NCBI GenBank assembly: GCA_964291315.2
Contig: OZ219753.1
Coordinates: forward strand, 1,216,001-1,280,000
Reading direction: 5' to 3'
DNA: 64,000 nucleotides
Origin: Candidatus Poribacteria bacterium
GTDB lineage: Bacteria > Poribacteria > WGA-4E > WGA-3G
Shown: positions 11,992 through 21,124 of the stretch, piece after piece
Layout of the letters: every line of letters begins with the position of its first letter
Position numbering within the stretch: the stretch's first letter is position 1
The notes under the pieces: generated by a model
What the model saw: the letters and a program-made list of their open reading frames with translations, nothing else
Database searches by the model: none
Told to the model about the DNA's origin: nothing
Position numbers and translations under genes: made by a program

Positions 11992-13038
11992 ATGAACTAT
12001 CGTGACCTGAGGATCGGAGCGTTAAAAGCAGAACTCAAAAAGCGGGGATTGAAAGGGTATTCATCGTTAAAAAAAGCTCAAATGATTGAATATCTTTCAA
12101 CAGGAATTCACCCGCTGAAACAGACAGAAGCATCTCCCATGGTAGCGGAGAGTGAAATGCTCGATTCGTCTCCTGAAGAAACTGAATATTCACCGACTAT
12201 TTTGGAGGGTACCACCCAAAAACTTCCAATCAATCAAGTTATATTGGGGAACTGTTTAAAGATTTTGCGATCTTTTCCTGATGGCGTTTTCGATTGTTGT
12301 ATTGCCGACCCGCCATTTAATATGTCGAGAAAAAAAGGGTTGGGTTGGGCCTTTAGTTCCCATGTTACAATGCAGGAACAGTGGGATATTTTCGCAAAAG
12401 ACGACTATTTTCAGTTCACGGTTGACTGGCTTCGTGAGGTATTAAGGGTGCTGAAGACAAACGGAAACTTGTTTGTTTTTGGGTCTTTCCACTGTATCTT
12501 TACAATCGGTTTTATTCTTCAAAACCTGTTTGACCGCCGAATCATCAGCCAACTAGTTTGGTACAAACCTAATGCACAACCTAATATCACCTGCCGTATG
12601 TTTACCGAATCGACTGAATTTATCGTTTGGGCAGTCAACAATGAAAGCAAAAAGGCCAAAAATTGGACGTTCAATTATGAGGTGATGAAAGGGCTAAACA
12701 ATAACAAACAAATGCGAAATGTGTGGGAGATTCCGCTTACCAAACGATCAGAACGGACGTATGGGAAACATCCGTCACAAAAGCCTGTTGCTGTTGTCAA
12801 TCGGCTTGTCTTAGCGGGAACTCATAAAGGTGATCTCATTCTTGATCCATTCTCTGGGACCGGAACTACAGCGGTTGTGGCTGAACAAAACAGTCGGAGA
12901 TGGGTCATGATTGAAAAGGAAGAAGCGTATAACGAAATTGCGCGACAGAGGCTTGGTGAGTTGGCCAATATGCTGTTTGAAGGTGATTCAGAGACCGATG
13001 AGAAACCTTTTTTCCCTTCACTGCTTGCGGTAGAATAG
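11992..13038 (+). CDS. Orphan beta-class N6-adenine/N4-cytosine DNA methyltransferase (DpnA-like) with N-terminal HEH/Rho-N-like domain
   Basis: DPPF precedes LDPFSGTGTT (beta order). WYKPNAQPNITCRMFTESTE, KHPSQKP. N-terminus LKAELKKRGLKGYSSLKKAQMI. Confidence 0.9.
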   Translation: MNYRDLRIGALKAELKKRGLKGYSSLKKAQMIEYLSTGIHPLKQTEASPMVAESEMLDSSPEETEYSPTILEGTTQKLPINQVILGNCLKILRSFPDGVFDCCIADPPFNMSRKKGLGWAFSSHVTMQEQWDIFAKDDYFQFTVDWLREVLRVLKTNGNLFVFGSFHCIFTIGFILQNLFDRRIISQLVWYKPNAQPNITCRMFTESTEFIVWAVNNESKKAKNWTFNYEVMKGLNNNKQMRNVWEIPLTKRSERTYGKHPSQKPVAVVNRLVLAGTHKGDLILDPFSGTGTTAVVAEQNSRRWVMIEKEEAYNEIARQRLGELANMLFEGDSETDEKPFFPSLLAVE

Positions 13039-13933: not shown

Positions 13934-15103
13934 ATGTTGAGTTACTTCTTACCTCCACGAATTGAATTTGGAAACGATGCCATCCAAAATTTGGGTAAGT
14001 ACGTCAAAATGTTTGATGGCAGAAAGCCGTTCTTGGTGAGCGACAGCGGGGTTATCAACGCCGGTATCCTCGCCAAGGCAATAGACGTATTGGAGGCAGC
14101 CGGTTTGGCGCACGCCACTTATTCAGACATCCAACCGAATCCGACAGACCTCAGCGTCATCGCGGGGGTGGAGGTCTACAAAAAGGAAGCATGCGACGTG
14201 GTTGTTGCTGTCGGCGGCGGGAGCGTGATGGATGCAGCAAAAGCCGTTCGGCTCCTAACAACGCATGAGCCGCCTTTGGAGACCTACTATGTTGATAGCG
14301 GCGGGATTGAACGGATCCGCGGCGATATGCCGCCCCTCGTATGCGTTCCAACAACCGCTGGCACGGGCAGTGAGGTCTCACAAGGCGCGATTATCACGGA
14401 TACATCGCTACAGACAACCGATCGCTGGCGAAAGCGCGCAATCGTTACACCGTTTAACATGGCGAACGTGGCACTCCTTGACCCCGCAATAATAGGCGGT
14501 ATGCCGCCCGCACTCACCGCTGCGACCGGTATGGATGCTATCACCCATGGGATCGAGGCGTACGTCGCGACAAAGTACCACCCGATTGCCGAGGGAGTGG
14601 CGTTACAGGCACTCAAGATGTTAAGTGCGAATATCCAGCAGGTCTATCGTAACGGGGAAGACATAACCGCACGGGGCGAGATGCTGCTCGGCTCATGCAT
14701 GGCGGCATTCTCATTCCAAAAGGGGCTCGGCGCTGTCCACTCCTTGGCGCATCAGCTCTCCACAGACGCACCGATCCCGCACGGGGTCGCGAACGCCCTG
14801 CTCCTTCCACCCGTCATGGCATTTAACTTTTCTCATGCAGCTGAGAAGTACGCTGAGATCGCGCGTGCCTTAGGAGTAGAAACCGAGAACATGGACACCG
14901 ACGCGGCAGCACATGCTGCGATTGATAAAATTCGGGCGTTTAACACTGAACTAGATATGCCCGCCGGACTCGGAGCCGCCGGCTTAGATCGAGCGAAGAT
15001 CCCGAAACTCAGCGCGGATGCAATGCTCGATCACTGTCACACATTCAATCCGAGGGAGTGCAGAAAAGCCGATATGGTCGCGTTGCTTGAGGCGGCATTT
15101 TGA
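13934..15103 (+). CDS. Iron-containing alcohol dehydrogenase
   Basis: AVGGGSVMDAAKA, VPTTAGTGSE, GMDAITHGIEA, GAVHSLAH, HGVANA. Confidence 0.95.
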   Translation: MLSYFLPPRIEFGNDAIQNLGKYVKMFDGRKPFLVSDSGVINAGILAKAIDVLEAAGLAHATYSDIQPNPTDLSVIAGVEVYKKEACDVVVAVGGGSVMDAAKAVRLLTTHEPPLETYYVDSGGIERIRGDMPPLVCVPTTAGTGSEVSQGAIITDTSLQTTDRWRKRAIVTPFNMANVALLDPAIIGGMPPALTAATGMDAITHGIEAYVATKYHPIAEGVALQALKMLSANIQQVYRNGEDITARGEMLLGSCMAAFSFQKGLGAVHSLAHQLSTDAPIPHGVANALLLPPVMAFNFSHAAEKYAEIARALGVETENMDTDAAAHAAIDKIRAFNTELDMPAGLGAAGLDRAKIPKLSADAMLDHCHTFNPRECRKADMVALLEAAF

Positions 15104-15126
15104 TTGCCAACGCTCTTTTCGGCACT

Positions 15127-15152
15127 TGTAGCATAGACTGTTAGTCTGTGCC
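15127..15152 (+). repeat. GTAG-type REP-like palindrome
   Basis: TGTAGCATAGACTGTTAGTCTGTGCC, stem GCATAGACT/AGTCTGTGC. Confidence 0.7.
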
Positions 15153-15250
15153 GCAGCAGTCTCTGCTATAGATATAGCAACAATCCGCTCTTTTCCTCGC
15201 TTGTGTTGGGAAAGAGGAATATTAAACACTTAAAAAAGGAGTATTTTCCG

Positions 15251-16135
15251 ATGAAAACGTATTTGAGGATCCCGAAACTTATGATTGCGGCGCTTGCTAT
15301 CGGCGCATGCTGCTTCGTTTTCTACGCCTGTGAGGTTGTAGATATTGGCGTTGTCACTAGCCCGTTGCAGGAGACTCCTGCTCCGCCAGAGAACATGGTG
15401 TTAATTCCTGCGGGGGAGTTTCAGATGGGTAGCAACGATGCAGATTCTCGCGCGGATGAGCAGCCCATCCATACCGTCTCTGTAGACGCGTTTTATATGG
15501 ATACGCACGAAGTGACAAACGCAGAATATGCGGCGTTTCTGAATGCCTGGGGCAACGATGATTGGTCTGATATCAACGCCGATGGGGCGCGCATTGAGCT
15601 TGTAGCAGGCATGTATCGGCCCGTGTCGGGGTACGCGGATCATCCGGTTGTTGAGGTGAGTTGGTATGGCGCGATGGCGTATGCGGAGTGGGCAGATAAA
15701 CGGCTGCCGACCGAAGCGGAGTGGGAATATGCCGCACGCGGCGGACTATCGGGCCAGAAATATCCGTGGGGCGACACGATTGATAGCACACACGCCAACT
15801 ACGCCGGCAATGCCGGTAGTACGACAGCGGTAGGCAGTTATGCAGCGAATGGGTACGGTTTGCATGATATGGCGGGGAACGTCTACGAATGGTGCTTAGA
15901 TGCGTATGACGAGGAGTTCTACGCCACCTCTCCTGCTCGGAATCCGCTGTCGGGTGCACCCAATATTAAGTGGTTATCAGACAACTATGAAGAAGTTAAT
16001 TCTGACCGCGTGTTACGTGGCGGTTCCTGGCCCAATACTGCCCGGGACGTGCGGGTCGCCGCTCGCGGCCTCAATGCGCCGTCGGTCACGGATGTCTTCT
16101 TCGGTTTCCGTTGTGTCAGGTCTGTATCCCCTTGA
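15251..16135 (+). CDS. FGE-sulfatase (SUMF1/CLec-fold) domain lipoprotein, putative DGR target
   Basis: Lipobox FYAC. MVLIPAGEFQMGS, RLPTEAEWEYAARGG, YGLHDMAGNVYEW, RVLRGGSW...GFRC. Lacks the catalytic Cys pair of true FGE. Confidence 0.9.
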   Translation: MKTYLRIPKLMIAALAIGACCFVFYACEVVDIGVVTSPLQETPAPPENMVLIPAGEFQMGSNDADSRADEQPIHTVSVDAFYMDTHEVTNAEYAAFLNAWGNDDWSDINADGARIELVAGMYRPVSGYADHPVVEVSWYGAMAYAEWADKRLPTEAEWEYAARGGLSGQKYPWGDTIDSTHANYAGNAGSTTAVGSYAANGYGLHDMAGNVYEWCLDAYDEEFYATSPARNPLSGAPNIKWLSDNYEEVNSDRVLRGGSWPNTARDVRVAARGLNAPSVTDVFFGFRCVRSVSP

Positions 16136-16163
16136 ATCTTTACTGTTTAACGCATTTTTCTTC

Positions 16164-16428
16164 TTAGGTTGTGCCGCAGCAGTCCCCGTGGCACAACCTG
16201 CTGAGGGGTGCCTTGTAGCATAGTCCCCTTGTAGCATAACCTGTTAGGTTGTGCATTGTATCATGTTGCTTGTAAGGATTTACTTGTAATGTGAGTTGGG
16301 TGATAAGCACCGAAGAGGCACAGGAAACTAACAGCCTACGATACAAGAACTGAAGAGGCACAGACTATCAGCCTATGCTACAAGAACATAAAGGATTTAC
16401 TTGTGGCATAACCTGTTAGGTTGTGCAT
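16164..16428. repeat. Array of GTAG-type REP-like palindromes (BIME-like)
   Basis: Units such as GTAGCATAACCTGTTAGGTTGTGC (16231), GGCACAGACTATCAGCCTATGCTAC (reverse) and GTGGCATAACCTGTTAGGTTGTGC (about 16403). Confidence 0.75.
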
Positions 16429-16451
16429 TCTATCAAATATATTAAATATAA

Positions 16452-18656
16452 ATGAAAAAAAGTAGAAATGGTATGAGAAGAACATTGTTCGTTCTGTCTA
16501 TTTTGGCGGTGCTGGTGTTTTCGGTTGCTCAGTTAGCAGCGGCGCAATGGAAGGCGAACCAAGTAACGAATCAGACAGATGAGAATGTAGATGTGATCCA
16601 TTCGACGTGGCGGCCTGCGAAAGAAGATATTCCGAACGGATTTCGGACGCGCGGGCATTATCGCCTGGCTCCGGGTGAGACTCGGCAATTTTATGCGTGG
16701 TCAGACAACAGCATCTATTTCCGCATCTTGCGTTCGGGTGAGGCGATAAAACCGAACGTTGATAAGGTGACGTTTAGTTTTTGGGTTCATCCGTCTCGTT
16801 CGTTTATGATAGTCTCGGACGAGCTGAGTGCTGCCGTGAAGTTTTCTGATTTGAGTTATGTGAATCGTTCTCGCGAGGGTTTTGTTCGTGAGGATGGTTT
16901 TATGAAGTATTCGAATGGCTCTGTTGTGAATATCACGTCTGGCTGGGTGTCCGTAGTTCCGGATGCGCCGGGTGCTGGCGATGGTGTGGGTCCTGGTGCT
17001 ACGACTACCCCTACGCCGCCGCAGGAGTCTCCTGCTCCGCCCGAGGGCATGGTGTTGATCCCTGCGGGCGAGTTTGAGATGGGCAGCAACGATGCAGATT
17101 CTTACTGGGATAAGCCGCACATTCATACTGTCTACGTGGATGCGTTTTATATGGACACACATGAAGTGACGAACGCAGACTTCCAGCGATTTGTGTTGGC
17201 GAACCCACAGTGGCAGAAGAGCCGGATTCCGGACAACTTGCACGGCGGAAACTACCTGAGGCATTGGGATGATTTTAATAACTATCCTGCGGGCAAGGCG
17301 AACCATCCTGTGGTTTGGGTGAGTTGGTATGGTGCAGTGGCGTATGCGAAGTGGGCAGGCAAGCGGCTCCCCACAGAGGCGGAGTGGGAGAAAGCCGCAC
17401 GCGGCGGCAAGTCGGGGCTAAAGTATCCCTGGGGAAACACGATTAGCCATACGCACGCGAACTACGGCAATAATGTCGGTGGGACGACGGCAGTGGGTGC
17501 GTATCCAGCGAATGGGTATGGTCTCTATGATATGGCCGGGAATGTCTACGAGTGGTGTCTGGATGCGTATGACGGGAACTTCTATGTTCGGTCCCCTGCT
17601 CGTAACCCCGTATCGGACGTGAATACACTGTCCAATATATTCCTAATATTAAATAATTACACCCAAATTAAGATGTCCCGCGTCTTTCGTGGCGGCAACT
17701 GCTACGATACAGCACAGGACGTGCGGGTCGCCCACCGCAACGCCTATTCGCCGCCGGCCTCGAACTCCGGCCTCGGGTTCCGTTGTGCGAGGTCCGTATC
17801 CCCTTCGGATGCTGGTGATGGTGTAGGTACTGGTGCTACTCCTCCTGTGCCTAGTGTCACCCCGCCGTCGCCGGAGGCTGCTGCTGCGCCCGAAGGCATG
17901 GTGTTAATTCCTGCGGGTGAGTTTGAGATGGGCAGCAACGATGCAGATTCTTACCCGGATGAGCAGCCCGTCCATACCGTCTACGTAGATGCGTTTTACA
18001 TGGACACACATGAAGTGACGAACGCGGAATTCAAGCGTTTTGTGTTGGCGAACCCACAGTGGCAGAAGAGCCGTATGCCGCACAACTTACACAATCAGTT
18101 CTACCTATTTCGGTGGAGTAGTCCTCCCAACTATCCTCGGCGCGAGGCGAACCATCCTGTTGCTGGGGTGTTTTGGCATGCTGCCGTGGCGTATGCGAAG
18201 TGGGCAGGCAAACGGCTCCCCACAGAGGCGGAGTGGGAGAAAGCTGCACGCGGTGGCAAGTCGGGGCTAAAGTATCCCTGGGGAAACACGATTAGCCGCA
18301 CGCGTGCGAACTACGGCGGATATCTCGGTGGAACGTATACAGTGGGTAGATATCCTGCGAATGGGTATGGTCTCTATGATATGGTGGGGAATGTCTGGGA
18401 GTGGTGTCTGGATGCGTATGACAAAAACTTCTATACCATTTCACCTACTTCTAATCCGCTATCGGGTGCGTCTAGTATTCAGTGGCTATTAGCTAATTAT
18501 GCAGAGATTAAGACTAAACGCGTCTTGCGTGGCGGCTCCTGGAGCGATCTATTCTCTGCGGAGCGGAAGGCGCGGGTTGCCTACCGCTTCGGCGGTACGC
18601 CTACGGGCGCGCACTACCTCCGCGGGTTCCGTTGCGCAAAGTCTGTATCCCCTTGA
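16452..18656 (+). CDS. Secreted protein with an N-terminal unknown domain and two tandem FGE/CLec-fold domains, putative DGR target
   Basis: Signal peptide (..AAA|QW). Two copies of PEGMVLIPAGEFEMGS...RLPTEAEWEKAARGG...GFRCA.SVSP separated by Pro/Thr linkers. Confidence 0.9.
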   Translation: MKKSRNGMRRTLFVLSILAVLVFSVAQLAAAQWKANQVTNQTDENVDVIHSTWRPAKEDIPNGFRTRGHYRLAPGETRQFYAWSDNSIYFRILRSGEAIKPNVDKVTFSFWVHPSRSFMIVSDELSAAVKFSDLSYVNRSREGFVREDGFMKYSNGSVVNITSGWVSVVPDAPGAGDGVGPGATTTPTPPQESPAPPEGMVLIPAGEFEMGSNDADSYWDKPHIHTVYVDAFYMDTHEVTNADFQRFVLANPQWQKSRIPDNLHGGNYLRHWDDFNNYPAGKANHPVVWVSWYGAVAYAKWAGKRLPTEAEWEKAARGGKSGLKYPWGNTISHTHANYGNNVGGTTAVGAYPANGYGLYDMAGNVYEWCLDAYDGNFYVRSPARNPVSDVNTLSNIFLILNNYTQIKMSRVFRGGNCYDTAQDVRVAHRNAYSPPASNSGLGFRCARSVSPSDAGDGVGTGATPPVPSVTPPSPEAAAAPEGMVLIPAGEFEMGSNDADSYPDEQPVHTVYVDAFYMDTHEVTNAEFKRFVLANPQWQKSRMPHNLHNQFYLFRWSSPPNYPRREANHPVAGVFWHAAVAYAKWAGKRLPTEAEWEKAARGGKSGLKYPWGNTISRTRANYGGYLGGTYTVGRYPANGYGLYDMVGNVWEWCLDAYDKNFYTISPTSNPLSGASSIQWLLANYAEIKTKRVLRGGSWSDLFSAERKARVAYRFGGTPTGAHYLRGFRCAKSVSP

Positions 18657-18694
18657 ATCTTTACTGTTTAACGCATTTCACTCCATTTTTCTTG

Positions 18695-18898
18695 TTAGGT
18701 TGTGCTGCAGCAGTCCTCGTAGCACAACCTGCTGAGGGGTGCCTTGTACTACAGTCCCCTTGTGTCATAACCTGTTAGGTTGTGCCTCCCCTCATAGTTT
18801 AAGGTGTCCAATTTGTGAGTTGATACTCAATCGCACAGGAAACCGACAGCCTATGCTACAAGCGTCGAAGAAGCACAGACTGGCAGTCTATGCTACAA
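18695..18898. repeat. Second array of GTAG-type REP-like palindromes
   Basis: Closely parallels 16164-16390: AGGTTGTGCT..AGCACAACCT, CATAACCTGTTAGGTTGTGC, GCACAGACTGGCAGTCTATGCTAC. Confidence 0.75.
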
Positions 18899-18904
18899 CT
18901 CCCT

Positions 18905-21124
18905 CTATTCGGCAATCGGCACAATCCAACCGTTCGTCACCGCTGGTTTATACGCATTGTCGCGCAAATAATCCGAGGTATGCCACAAGCAGAGATGCTG
19001 ACCGTCTGGCATCCAGACAACCGAGGTCAGTTTTAGCGCAGTCCGCGCAATTGGAAATTTCTTACCGCTCTCTAGGTCATAAACCCAGACCTTCCAGCGG
19101 ATACCCTCACAGTCCTCACGCTCCAGATATGCCAACCGCCTCCCGGTCGGCGACCACGACGGTGATGTGTGTGCCAAAATTTCGCTCTGTGTCAAGCCCC
19201 TAACCGTTTCCGACAGGTGCAGCTGCTTATCGATCCGCCGCCCGGGTCTATTGCTGCCCGATAAAACGTATGCGATCCGGGTGCTATCTGCTGCCCAATT
19301 GAGTTGTCGCACCTGTTGATGCTGCGTCTGAATCTCTTTTATCCGCTGCCCCTCTATATCTTGAATGCGGATACCCACGTATTTTGAGTTATCTACACCA
19401 AAAGCGACGCGTGTGCCGTCAGGTGCCCAAGAAGGTGCAGGTAGATAGGTGTAAGTCCGCTGTCGACGTTCGATGGGCACCCGCGCAATAGCACGTAAAC
19501 CGCTACCGTCGCTATTGATTCGATAGATGATGTCTAGTTCCTTTTCGCGCCTTCTAAACACTAGACGGTTGGAGGTCGGAGAAAAAGCGGGCCCCTCGCC
19601 ACGGACCAACTGTTTCGTCTGGCCGAACTTCCAATCCACTGTGTAGATATAGCGCTCACCGTTTTCATCAACCTCAAACGCGACGAGCCTGCTATCCAGG
19701 GACCAAGAGAGGTGCGGATTGTAAAACTGGCCGATATAGTATTTTCGTGCTCGCGCCCCTTTCCGATCCATAATCCACAACTCATTTGCACGCCAGTATC
19801 TACTTTTCAAATCGTCCCTTTTCAGAAACGCGACCAACTCCCCATCCGGGCTCCAGCGCGGGTATTCAGCACCCTCTATCAGTTGCAGCCGGCGCGGGGA
19901 TGGCGCTGAGCCGTCAGGCTCCCGGCAAAAAGTGGTGTTGAACAAAATGCCGTCTGTCTCCTCAAATTCCCCGAAGGCAAATTTATCCATCCACCCGCGG
20001 ACACCGTTCGGCAGCTCGATGTCGTACCACCCATCTGAAACTTGCACAATGGGCAAGGACATTTCCGCATTGAGGTGTAACAGCACGGACTTTTGATCTT
20101 TTGTCGTGTAGACCGGTGCCTCGTCGTGGACCACAACGCCTGATCGCCGGGGTTCCGCAGTTGCCGGGACTGCAGCTGCGTTCGTGAAGGCGTAAACATA
20201 CCCGTCGCCAGATGCTGCGTAAAGAGTGCCATCAGATATAGCAGGTGCGGCATCTACAAAACCGCCTGTCTGGTACATCCAAGTTTCTGTATGTGATGCC
20301 GAATCAAACCCGTGGATACGTCCATCGCGCGCACCGATGTAAGTAATGCCGTTTGCTGTAACAGGATAGCTGTCGCTTCCGGCCGTATAACCGCGCCATA
20401 CCTTGGCAGCGTGCTCCGGGAACACTGGCCGGAACACGCCGTTGGCACATCCGTATTCGATGCCATGAATTCGGACTGTCCGCTCATGCATCGCCTCAAG
20501 TTCGCCCGTCCTCGCGTTCAGCACGTAGATTTTTGATGGAAACGCGCCGACATAAACCTTGTTATCGGCAACGATGGGCGGTCCGTCCATCCAACTTTTC
20601 GTTTTGAATTTCCACAGCTTTTTGCCTGTTTGTGCCCTCAATGCATGGATTTTATTGTTTCGTGCGTTGAAGTAGACGCTATCACCGAGCACCGTCGCAG
20701 AATAACGGATAGCGTCCCCGGCATCAAACACCCATTTAATCCCCCACTGCTTCGCGTCTAACGCATACAATTTTCCGTCAGTCGACCCGATATACAAGAT
20801 ACCGTTTGCAATCACCGGTGAGGCATGGAGGGGGCCACCCGTTTTGAATCTCCACAACAGCTTCAGGGGCGGCATCAGGTGTTTGTCGGGGCTAATCCCG
20901 GAAAAACCGAGGTTGTGCATAAACATGTACCAATCTTCAGCACGCGGAGGTGTAACAGCAATGACTTCGGGAGACACGGACTCCTCCACCTCGGAAGGAC
21001 GTGATGCCCCCTGCTGTGTTGAATCACACCCGCATACCAGCAGAAATACGAGTAACGCTATAAATTTTAGGGCGCAGTTCGTGTACCAACACTGGTTGTC
21101 CAGCAATCTATTCGAGAGATACAC
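18905..21124 (-). CDS. Lipoprotein with PQQ-like (BamB-type) propeller, SH3-like domain and TolB-like propeller
   Basis: Lipobox LVCGC. Repeats SP...G.LY.GS.DG.LYALDA. WYDIELPNGVRGW (SH3b-like). WSPDG repeats. Start codon uncertain. Confidence 0.85.
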   Translation of the reverse strand: MYLSNRLLDNQCWYTNCALKFIALLVFLLVCGCDSTQQGASRPSEVEESVSPEVIAVTPPRAEDWYMFMHNLGFSGISPDKHLMPPLKLLWRFKTGGPLHASPVIANGILYIGSTDGKLYALDAKQWGIKWVFDAGDAIRYSATVLGDSVYFNARNNKIHALRAQTGKKLWKFKTKSWMDGPPIVADNKVYVGAFPSKIYVLNARTGELEAMHERTVRIHGIEYGCANGVFRPVFPEHAAKVWRGYTAGSDSYPVTANGITYIGARDGRIHGFDSASHTETWMYQTGGFVDAAPAISDGTLYAASGDGYVYAFTNAAAVPATAEPRRSGVVVHDEAPVYTTKDQKSVLLHLNAEMSLPIVQVSDGWYDIELPNGVRGWMDKFAFGEFEETDGILFNTTFCREPDGSAPSPRRLQLIEGAEYPRWSPDGELVAFLKRDDLKSRYWRANELWIMDRKGARARKYYIGQFYNPHLSWSLDSRLVAFEVDENGERYIYTVDWKFGQTKQLVRGEGPAFSPTSNRLVFRRREKELDIIYRINSDGSGLRAIARVPIERRQRTYTYLPAPSWAPDGTRVAFGVDNSKYVGIRIQDIEGQRIKEIQTQHQQVRQLNWAADSTRIAYVLSGSNRPGRRIDKQLHLSETVRGLTQSEILAHTSPSWSPTGRRLAYLEREDCEGIRWKVWVYDLESGKKFPIARTALKLTSVVWMPDGQHLCLWHTSDYLRDNAYKPAVTNGWIVPIAE

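Follow-up and report, generated by a model that had tools for sequence, protein, structure and literature searches.

Can a hypermutation system be recognized from its targets alone when the machinery that would write them is nowhere nearby? Two adjacent genes in a 64,000-nt stretch of a Candidatus Poribacteria genome raise this question. The stretch, hereafter called the window, is C4:1216001-1280000 in an assembly of 4 contigs (4.40 Mb; estimated contamination, 3.49%), and coordinates without a contig name are window positions. Three homologous segments, A, B and C, form the C-terminal ends of three PF03781 formylglycine-generating enzyme (FGE)-sulfatase domains of C-type-lectin (CLec) fold in the two genes. 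A first-pass annotation had noted that a run of 14 codons in each segment changes its amino acids while mostly keeping the third codon base, and had proposed that the segments are variable regions (VRs) of a diversity-generating retroelement (DGR) whose reverse transcriptase (RT) and template lie outside the window. The codons quoted there are exact for all three cores (Table 1), and our recount agrees with the pattern: B and C differ by 12 amino acid changes, with the third base kept in 12/12, and A and B also differ by 12, with the third base kept in 10/12. The window does indeed lack an RT and a template, as the genome's only RVT_1 matches lie outside it and the only template-like segments within it are A, B and C. 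Judged from sequence, A, B and C are genuine DGR variable regions, with their machinery outside the window.

The two RVT_1 matches in the genome (C4:495366-496007 and C3:32128-32769; 76.9-79.3 bits against a cutoff of 29.6) each belong to a cassette of four parts: a 462- or 463-aa target gene (the cis target), a 115-aa Avd, a 352-aa RT and a segment with homology to the VRs that lies no more than about 80 nt past the RT. The 115-aa open reading frame (ORF) overlaps the RT start and matches both NF033474 DivGenRetAVD (112 bits; cutoff, 80) and PF22296 bAvd (76.8 bits; cutoff, 40). The RT translation carries IGNLTSQ together with an intact YVDD, and DGR RTs are marked by the motif [I/L/V]GxxxSQ. 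The best solved relative of the RT is 8ub7 (5e-62), which is probably the Bordetella phage DGR RT; group II intron RTs follow at 1.9e-22. None of the group II, retron, Drt and Abi models scores the RT above its cutoff. Its nearest relatives (78-83% identity) all come from Candidatus Poribacteria metagenome-assembled genomes, and the Avd-RT-template layout, with an intact A-rich template after the RT, recurs in seven related Poribacteria cassettes.

The first-pass annotation had also predicted the sequence of the missing template, to be found elsewhere in the genome next to a DGR-type RT and Avd. The template repeat on contig C3 matches 49 of the 51 predicted bases and satisfies both ambiguous positions, the two differences being CCA for CCG and TTT for TTC, and both an RT and an Avd stand beside it. 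The DGR footprint was therefore readable from raw sequence well enough to predict a distant template nearly base for base. The window targets lie about 736 kb from the C4 RT (C4:495156-496211), whose cassette is upstream of them, and the intact template is on C3. The window VRs are remote targets in the sense of Wu et al. (2018), lying more than 100 kb from the RT and outside any other DGR, in a window without an RT.

As anticipated, mismatches between the window VRs and the template concentrate at template adenines, of which 59-75% are changed in A, B and C versus 6-10% of the other bases (Table 1). In the cis targets, the corresponding changes affect 15-23/32 adenines and 1-2/79 other bases. 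A comparison of this kind overstates the signal when it is applied naively: in six control paralogues of the ordinary FGE type, 44-56% of mismatches also fall at template adenines, because the adenines sit in loop codons. The retention of third bases could then be explained with no DGR at all, as divergence of paralogues under codon bias at third positions (GC3) combined with selection on loop residues. A sharper measure is the number of non-adenine changes within the 14-codon core, which consists of 22 adenines and 20 other bases. By this measure, the core shows 2/20 changes in A (both third-position C>T), 0/20 in B and 0/20 in C, next to 18, 16 and 17 changes at adenines, respectively, compared with 5-10/20 non-adenine changes in 15 ordinary paralogues (segments with at least 15 non-adenine mismatches overall). 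Under a criterion that admits A-to-N changes only, the exceptions thus number two in the core of A and none in those of B and C, and 5-8 per VR over the whole 111 nt.

Across the 42 template-like segments that span the core, non-adenine core changes number 0 in 11 segments (B and C among them), 1 in 5, 2 in 4 (A among them), 3-4 in 5 and 5-10 in 17. Since the counts in the window VRs are far below those of ordinary paralogues, the footprint is genuine and cannot be put down to codon bias. With a near-exact A-rich template, an Avd and an RT present in the same genome, ordinary divergence is refuted for practical purposes, and we assign it a close to negligible probability.

The 3′ boundaries of the VRs are also shared. 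Homology between VR and template stops where an element begins that resembles an initiation of mutagenic homing (IMH) sequence. Positions 16120-16128, 16130-16131 and 16133-16135 are invariant across all six aligned VR 3′ ends, and the template diverges there; A, B and C each have at most one change relative to the IMH-like 3′ element of the cis targets. The element doubles as coding sequence for the conserved protein C terminus, and its role as an IMH is putative. The alignments of the terminal VRs each end five codons ahead of the stop codon. Hairpins start approximately 30-40 nt past VRs A and C, and pairing in the C copy is kept by a compensatory C:G to T:A change.

Table 1. Features of the window targets and the template repeat (changes are given as template adenines, other bases and Fisher p).
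Feature	Position	Strand	Changes relative to template	Description
Template repeat	C3:31736-31846	-		A-rich, 32 A in 111 nt; just downstream of Avd and RT
VR A	16007..16117	+	24/32; 5/77; p = 9e-13	111 nt homologous to template repeat; core 16061-16102; starts at C4:1232007
VR B	17679..17789	+	19/32; 7/79; p = 7e-8	Internal, end of domain 1; core 17733-17774; IMH-like element 17791-17805, then coding linker
VR C	18519..18637	+	23/32; 8/78; p = 3e-10	C-terminal; core 18582-18623; 9-nt insertion near 18548-18556 in 5′ half
IMH-like element after VR A	16119..16135	+		Begins where VR/template homology stops; stop codon included
IMH-like element after VR C	18640..18656	+		Stop codon included
Hairpin downstream of VR A	16166..16199	+		10-bp stem, 14-nt loop
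Hairpin downstream of VR C	18697..18730	+		10-bp stem, 14-nt loop
Target gene 1	15203..16135	+		310 aa, probably internal Met start; signal/lipoprotein-like N terminus; one FGE-sulfatase domain ending in VR A
Target gene 2	16452..18656	+		734 aa; signal peptide (by eye), N-terminal domain of ~170 aa, two FGE-sulfatase domains
Block with both target genes	15104..18904			~3.8 kb; insertion relative to most of genus

We propose that the C3 cassette, with its target gene, Avd, RT and template repeat, would make the template RNA, which an RT-Avd complex would copy into cDNA while misreading adenines. At any FGE-type lectin-fold domain with a matching 3′ element, the cDNA would replace the homologous stretch that ends the domain. 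The two window genes, for all their distance from the C4 cassette, would be among the sites rewritten in this way, and rewriting would reach up to about 14 loop codons (of the AAC/AAT/ACG type in the template) of exported binding proteins. We infer that homing acts in trans on the window copies, and we lean, if only slightly, toward at least B and C being competent targets today. A substantial chance, somewhat short of even, goes to the view that all three VRs are relics, written by a past DGR and now frozen and drifting like ordinary sequence. All further explanations together command very little probability.

Non-adenine changes affect 0/20 core and 7/59 template-homologous flank positions in B, 0/20 and 8/58 in C, and 2/20 and 3/57 in A. 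In ordinary paralogues, core non-adenine sites change 1.65 times faster than the flanks; two segments below the control threshold, C4:2771771 and C4:332031 (10 and 13 non-adenine mismatches overall, 6 in the core each), were left out of this comparison. For B and C, the flanks lead one to expect more core changes than are seen (P = 0.013 and P = 0.006, respectively; pooled, 0/40 versus 15/117, p = 0.0095 [by Fisher's test]). As paralogue cores outpace their flanks, the lack of any core change in B and C, whose flanks differ from the template by 12-14%, is unexpected if these VRs have been frozen since the flanks diverged. A short tract was therefore written after, or despite, flank divergence, a pattern which trans homing into diverged paralogues would give. 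Retention of the IMH-like 3′ element likewise argues against relics.

Several observations weigh against present-day competence, and some of them for the relic view. In VR A, drift in the core is on a par with that in the flanks (P = 0.75) and includes the two non-adenine changes; this VR looks as if it is decaying. The 5-8 non-adenine mismatches per VR place the window VRs in an intermediate position relative to the 0-3 found in the ten best segments of the genome. VR C combines its 9-nt insertion with four non-adenine changes in the 5′ half, and the 130 nt downstream of VR B, which is internal, contain no inverted repeat. The nearer cassette, on C4, lacks an intact template. Directly 3′ of the last adenine, moreover, TTT of the template is replaced by TTC in all three VRs, and GGT by GGG in B and C. 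These synonymous differences count against homing from the present template because a copy running to its 3′ end would reset them, unless the junction lies upstream. On the other side, the VR at C4:501338, beside the C4 cassette, has only 2 non-adenine mismatches and is otherwise perfect, and it reads the same GGG TTC, so homing need not reset these two bases. A lost template variant is a live alternative, as the templates of some related Poribacteria (L020 and L016) end in GGGTTC/GGATTC, so such variants exist; the writer of the relics was possibly a template ending in GGG TTC, for example, that of the C4 cassette before its destruction.

Metagenomic data bear on the same point and favor neither view. 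Four runs from one study were available as contigs only (180-470 nt and broken at paralogues), and no read-level variation in A, B or C was obtained from these contig-only data. Among 40 listed of 569 differences, none lies in a VR core. The run that best covers the stretch has contigs that match the window without a difference over 15905-16116 and 17556-17768. Contigs of the other three samples span the VRs and carry 10-26 differences, at positions outside the listed set.

Comparison of the two cassettes provides evidence of rewriting. Their identity over 3.8 kb is 97%, with differences in 133 of 3,862 aligned columns. The 111-nt VR of the cis target (C3:33449-33559 and C4:494579-494689) alone accounts for 29 of these columns, 26 at template adenines and 3 elsewhere, whereas most 100-nt bins outside the VR and template contain 0-1 differences. 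Exceptions are a mosaic patch (C4:494086-494386), smaller clusters at approximately C4:494786-494885 and 496086-496285, and a diverged flank after the template. The 26 adenine differences between otherwise near-identical cassettes indicate that one or both cis targets have been rewritten by the DGR since the cassettes were duplicated.

The segment at the template position of the C4 cassette (C4:496289-496399) is a hybrid and forms the start of a 540-aa ORF (L004:5293-6915). In its upstream flank and 5′ half, it does not differ from the C3 template and retains every adenine. Its 3′ half resembles a VR, with 13 adenines and no other bases changed, and continues into a linker and two more FGE domains. 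The hybrid looks like the outcome of recombination between template and VR that destroyed the template, or like an assembly chimera. On C3, two single-domain target genes stand in tandem just downstream of the intact template (C3:29313-30176 and C3:30451-31320, minus strand); their VRs and C-terminal halves are identical, and their N-terminal halves differ. This could reflect recent gene conversion, a duplication without rewriting since, or an assembly effect. Both observations suit the view of the window VRs as relics: a hybrid occupies the C4 template position, and the identical tandem VRs show that turnover is not universal among VRs.

A separate objection to competent window targets is that the intact template lies on another contig of an assembly with some estimated contamination. 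C3 could have been mis-binned from another strain or organism, in which case the cell that carries the window would be left with the damaged C4 template, and its VRs would go unserved; the identity of the cassettes over 3.8 kb could then reflect two strains. However, the cassette flanks beyond the 3.8 kb are unmatched save for weaker paralogous matches (82-94%, mostly <1.2 kb), and the two cassettes are therefore different loci. C3 also holds further family members at 225-227 kb. We consider mis-binning very unlikely.

The genome as a whole carries many more such segments. By hand count, 20 segments with at most 2 non-adenine core changes occur in 14 ORFs on three contigs, and many of the encoded proteins have signal peptide-like N termini by eye, which bears out the suggestion of the first-pass annotation that a dispersed family of exported proteins is involved, export being a prediction. 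Eight of the 20 segments are internal to multidomain genes (the template/VR hybrid included), and the ORFs include a 565-aa two-domain gene and a 1,612-aa ORF; a segment at C3:225951 is outside the count. Over all 111 nt, ten segments stay clean (0-3 non-adenine changes). The 1,612-aa ORF (C4:2728444-2733282) has tandem FGE-type domains with five VR-like segments, each bearing 1-4 non-adenine core changes, and an adjoining 309-aa ORF carries another.

With an identical query and threshold, 28 template-like segments were found in this genome, compared with 0-5 in ten relatives. Five of these relatives are DGR-bearing genomes of the genus, with fragmented assemblies, that have 1-4 segments, and five are complete genomes of the genus without an RT that have 0, 0, 0, 5 and 2. 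In the last two (G008:C1, 5 places; G014:C1, 2 places), the segments are 71-78% identical and this RT was not found; they may be fossil VRs, or a more distant RT may be present. Overall, the RT was found in 7 of the 61 genomes of the genus searched, in one of them as a fragment only.

How does this arrangement compare with known DGRs? The prototype DGR, that of Bordetella phage BPP-1, shares with it an Avd, an RT, a template, adenine mutagenesis, a 3′ boundary of the IMH type (putative here) and a downstream hairpin. The BPP-1 element differs in being phage borne, in having a single adjacent target of another CLec type (Mtd) and in its order, target-avd-TR-RT, where TR is the template repeat.

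For the published systems that follow, the comparison covers a part of each source. In Trichodesmium erythraeum IMS101, one template by the RT is reported to serve at least 12 dispersed genes with C-terminal FGE-sulfatase (DUF323) VRs; the changes at codon positions 1 and 2 correspond to template adenines, and four VRs with non-adenine changes were taken as degenerate (Pfreundt et al. 2014, PMC4143802). The single template, the dispersed FGE-type VRs and the degenerate copies are alike in the two systems. The present genome, whose host is Poribacteria-like, differs in its 20 VR-like segments in 14 ORFs, several of them internal, in its two cassettes, one with the template fused to a VR, and in N termini that carry signal peptides (by eye) rather than the kinase or caspase domains described for Trichodesmium. 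That four of the 12 Trichodesmium VRs are reported as degenerate shows the same mix as here and lends some support to the window VRs being relics.

Treponema, with seven nonadjacent targets, holds the maximum in the survey of Wu et al. (2018, PMC5758913), which in the portion considered also describes a gene that has two internal VRs and a third besides, and places remote targets solely in nonphage lineages. The Treponema denticola DGR and its TvpA (2y3c) resemble the present system in the FGE-type lectin-fold variable protein, the remote targets more than 100 kb from the RT and the nonphage setting. Here, there are more targets, and tandem domains each with a VR, and the system is known from sequence alone. 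In Thiohalocapsa PB-PSB1, Dore et al. (bioRxiv 10.1101/2023.09.22.558884) report 15 targets, many of which have STAND NTPase or conflict-system domains, at nine loci that fall into four classes. As far as that account goes, the two genomes share loci without RT or template that are, or in our case would be, diversified in trans, tandem VR-bearing CLec domains, expansion via intragenomic duplication and activity that is unequal among VRs. The present system differs in having one template family and predicted exported proteins, and no STAND NTPase or conflict-system domains were detected in a Pfam scan of the window and cassette proteins.

Vallota-Eastman et al. (2020, PMC7517822) list 76 remote targets in 21 cyanobacterial genomes, along with paralogues that retain remnant template homology. 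CLec paralogues are likewise scattered through the genome in our case; the cyanobacterial matches, in the text considered, are exclusively near gene 3′ termini, in contrast to the 8/20 internal segments here. The survey of Roux et al. (2021) is described as unable to detect remote targets. A literature search for DGRs together with Poribacteria turned up no paper on the subject; two papers contained both terms, and the one listed is, judging by title and abstract, about cold-seep viruses. The supplementary tables of surveys may list such elements.

The system is thus of a known kind, with a target set that is unusually large and graded. Against the 20 VR-like segments here stand 12 in Trichodesmium and 7 remote targets in Treponema, in the parts of those reports considered. 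A more ambitious account would combine these observations: one intact template would serve about 20 VRs in 14 genes, spread across three contigs and no less than 2.4 Mb, which would exceed any DGR target set described for a single template, and this in a lineage of uncultivated sponge symbionts whose DGRs are undescribed; recombination with a target VR would have cost the C4 cassette its template, so that its own targets would now rely in trans on the sister cassette; and the graded decay of the VRs (from 0 to 4 or more non-adenine core changes) would reflect a cycle of birth and death, with lectin domains entering hypermutation after duplication and later leaving it. We regard this account as tentative and, taken as a whole, rather unlikely. 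The genome nevertheless offers a compact natural example of what is probably trans-acting hypermutation over a large paralogous family. The occurrence together of internal and terminal VRs, both clean and decaying, makes it a test bed for what renders a remote site competent, be it the 3′ element, flank identity or the hairpin. Should the host be a Poribacterium, hypervariable exported lectin-fold proteins are a possible factor in symbiont-host or symbiont-phage interactions.

The products of the two window genes fit the family. The 310-aa ORF matches PF03781 at 4.5e-67, covering profile positions 3-255 of 255 and stopping 4 residues short of the protein C terminus, and the 734-aa ORF matches it in two stretches (1.5e-122). 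Among solved structures, the 310-aa protein matches FGEs at ∼1e-40 and the T. denticola variable protein 2y3c at 8.6e-13. N termini across the family (window, cassettes and other targets) are hydrophobic with Ala-X-Ala or Cys-containing ends by eye, from which export is predicted. The N-terminal domain of the 734-aa protein (16452-16970) has no Pfam match and is common to the cis targets of both cassettes. A protein-atlas feature search linked this domain weakly to DUF1036 (score, 0.93; recognition under the guide value), a lead only, and a query of the metagenome contigs with it gave 95 pattern matches and 0 relatives.

The two window genes are mosaics of family members. The 734-aa gene has 80% DNA identity to the cis-target genes (C4:493210-494703 and C3:33435-34931), and the 5′ end of the mosaic resembles that of a gene which precedes each cassette. 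Over about 75-130 nt, the 3′ flanks of A and C share 85-90% identity, and this flank sequence is absent elsewhere in the genome.

The block that holds both genes lies between an alcohol dehydrogenase gene (13934-15103) and a 739-aa gene (18905-21124, minus strand). These two genes are 10-90 bp apart in 12 of 18 genomes of the same genus, and the gap holds 1-24 kb of differing cargo in the other 6. We therefore read the block as an insertion at a variable site. Within the genus, the gap is a variable hotspot; two genomes (G004 and G010) carry WD40-repeat and other genes there and no FGE genes. A dispersed short palindromic repeat flanks the target genes (16300-16440 and 18790-18904); its units of about 65-85 nt resemble repetitive extragenic palindromic (REP) sequences or miniature inverted-repeat transposable elements (MITEs), and the two copies give 56 and 46 blastn matches genome-wide. 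Upstream of the dehydrogenase gene, the translation of a 348-aa ORF (11992-13038) shows a DPPF motif by eye; this ORF appears to combine a candidate N-terminal SAP-like helix motif with a putative DNA methyltransferase core.

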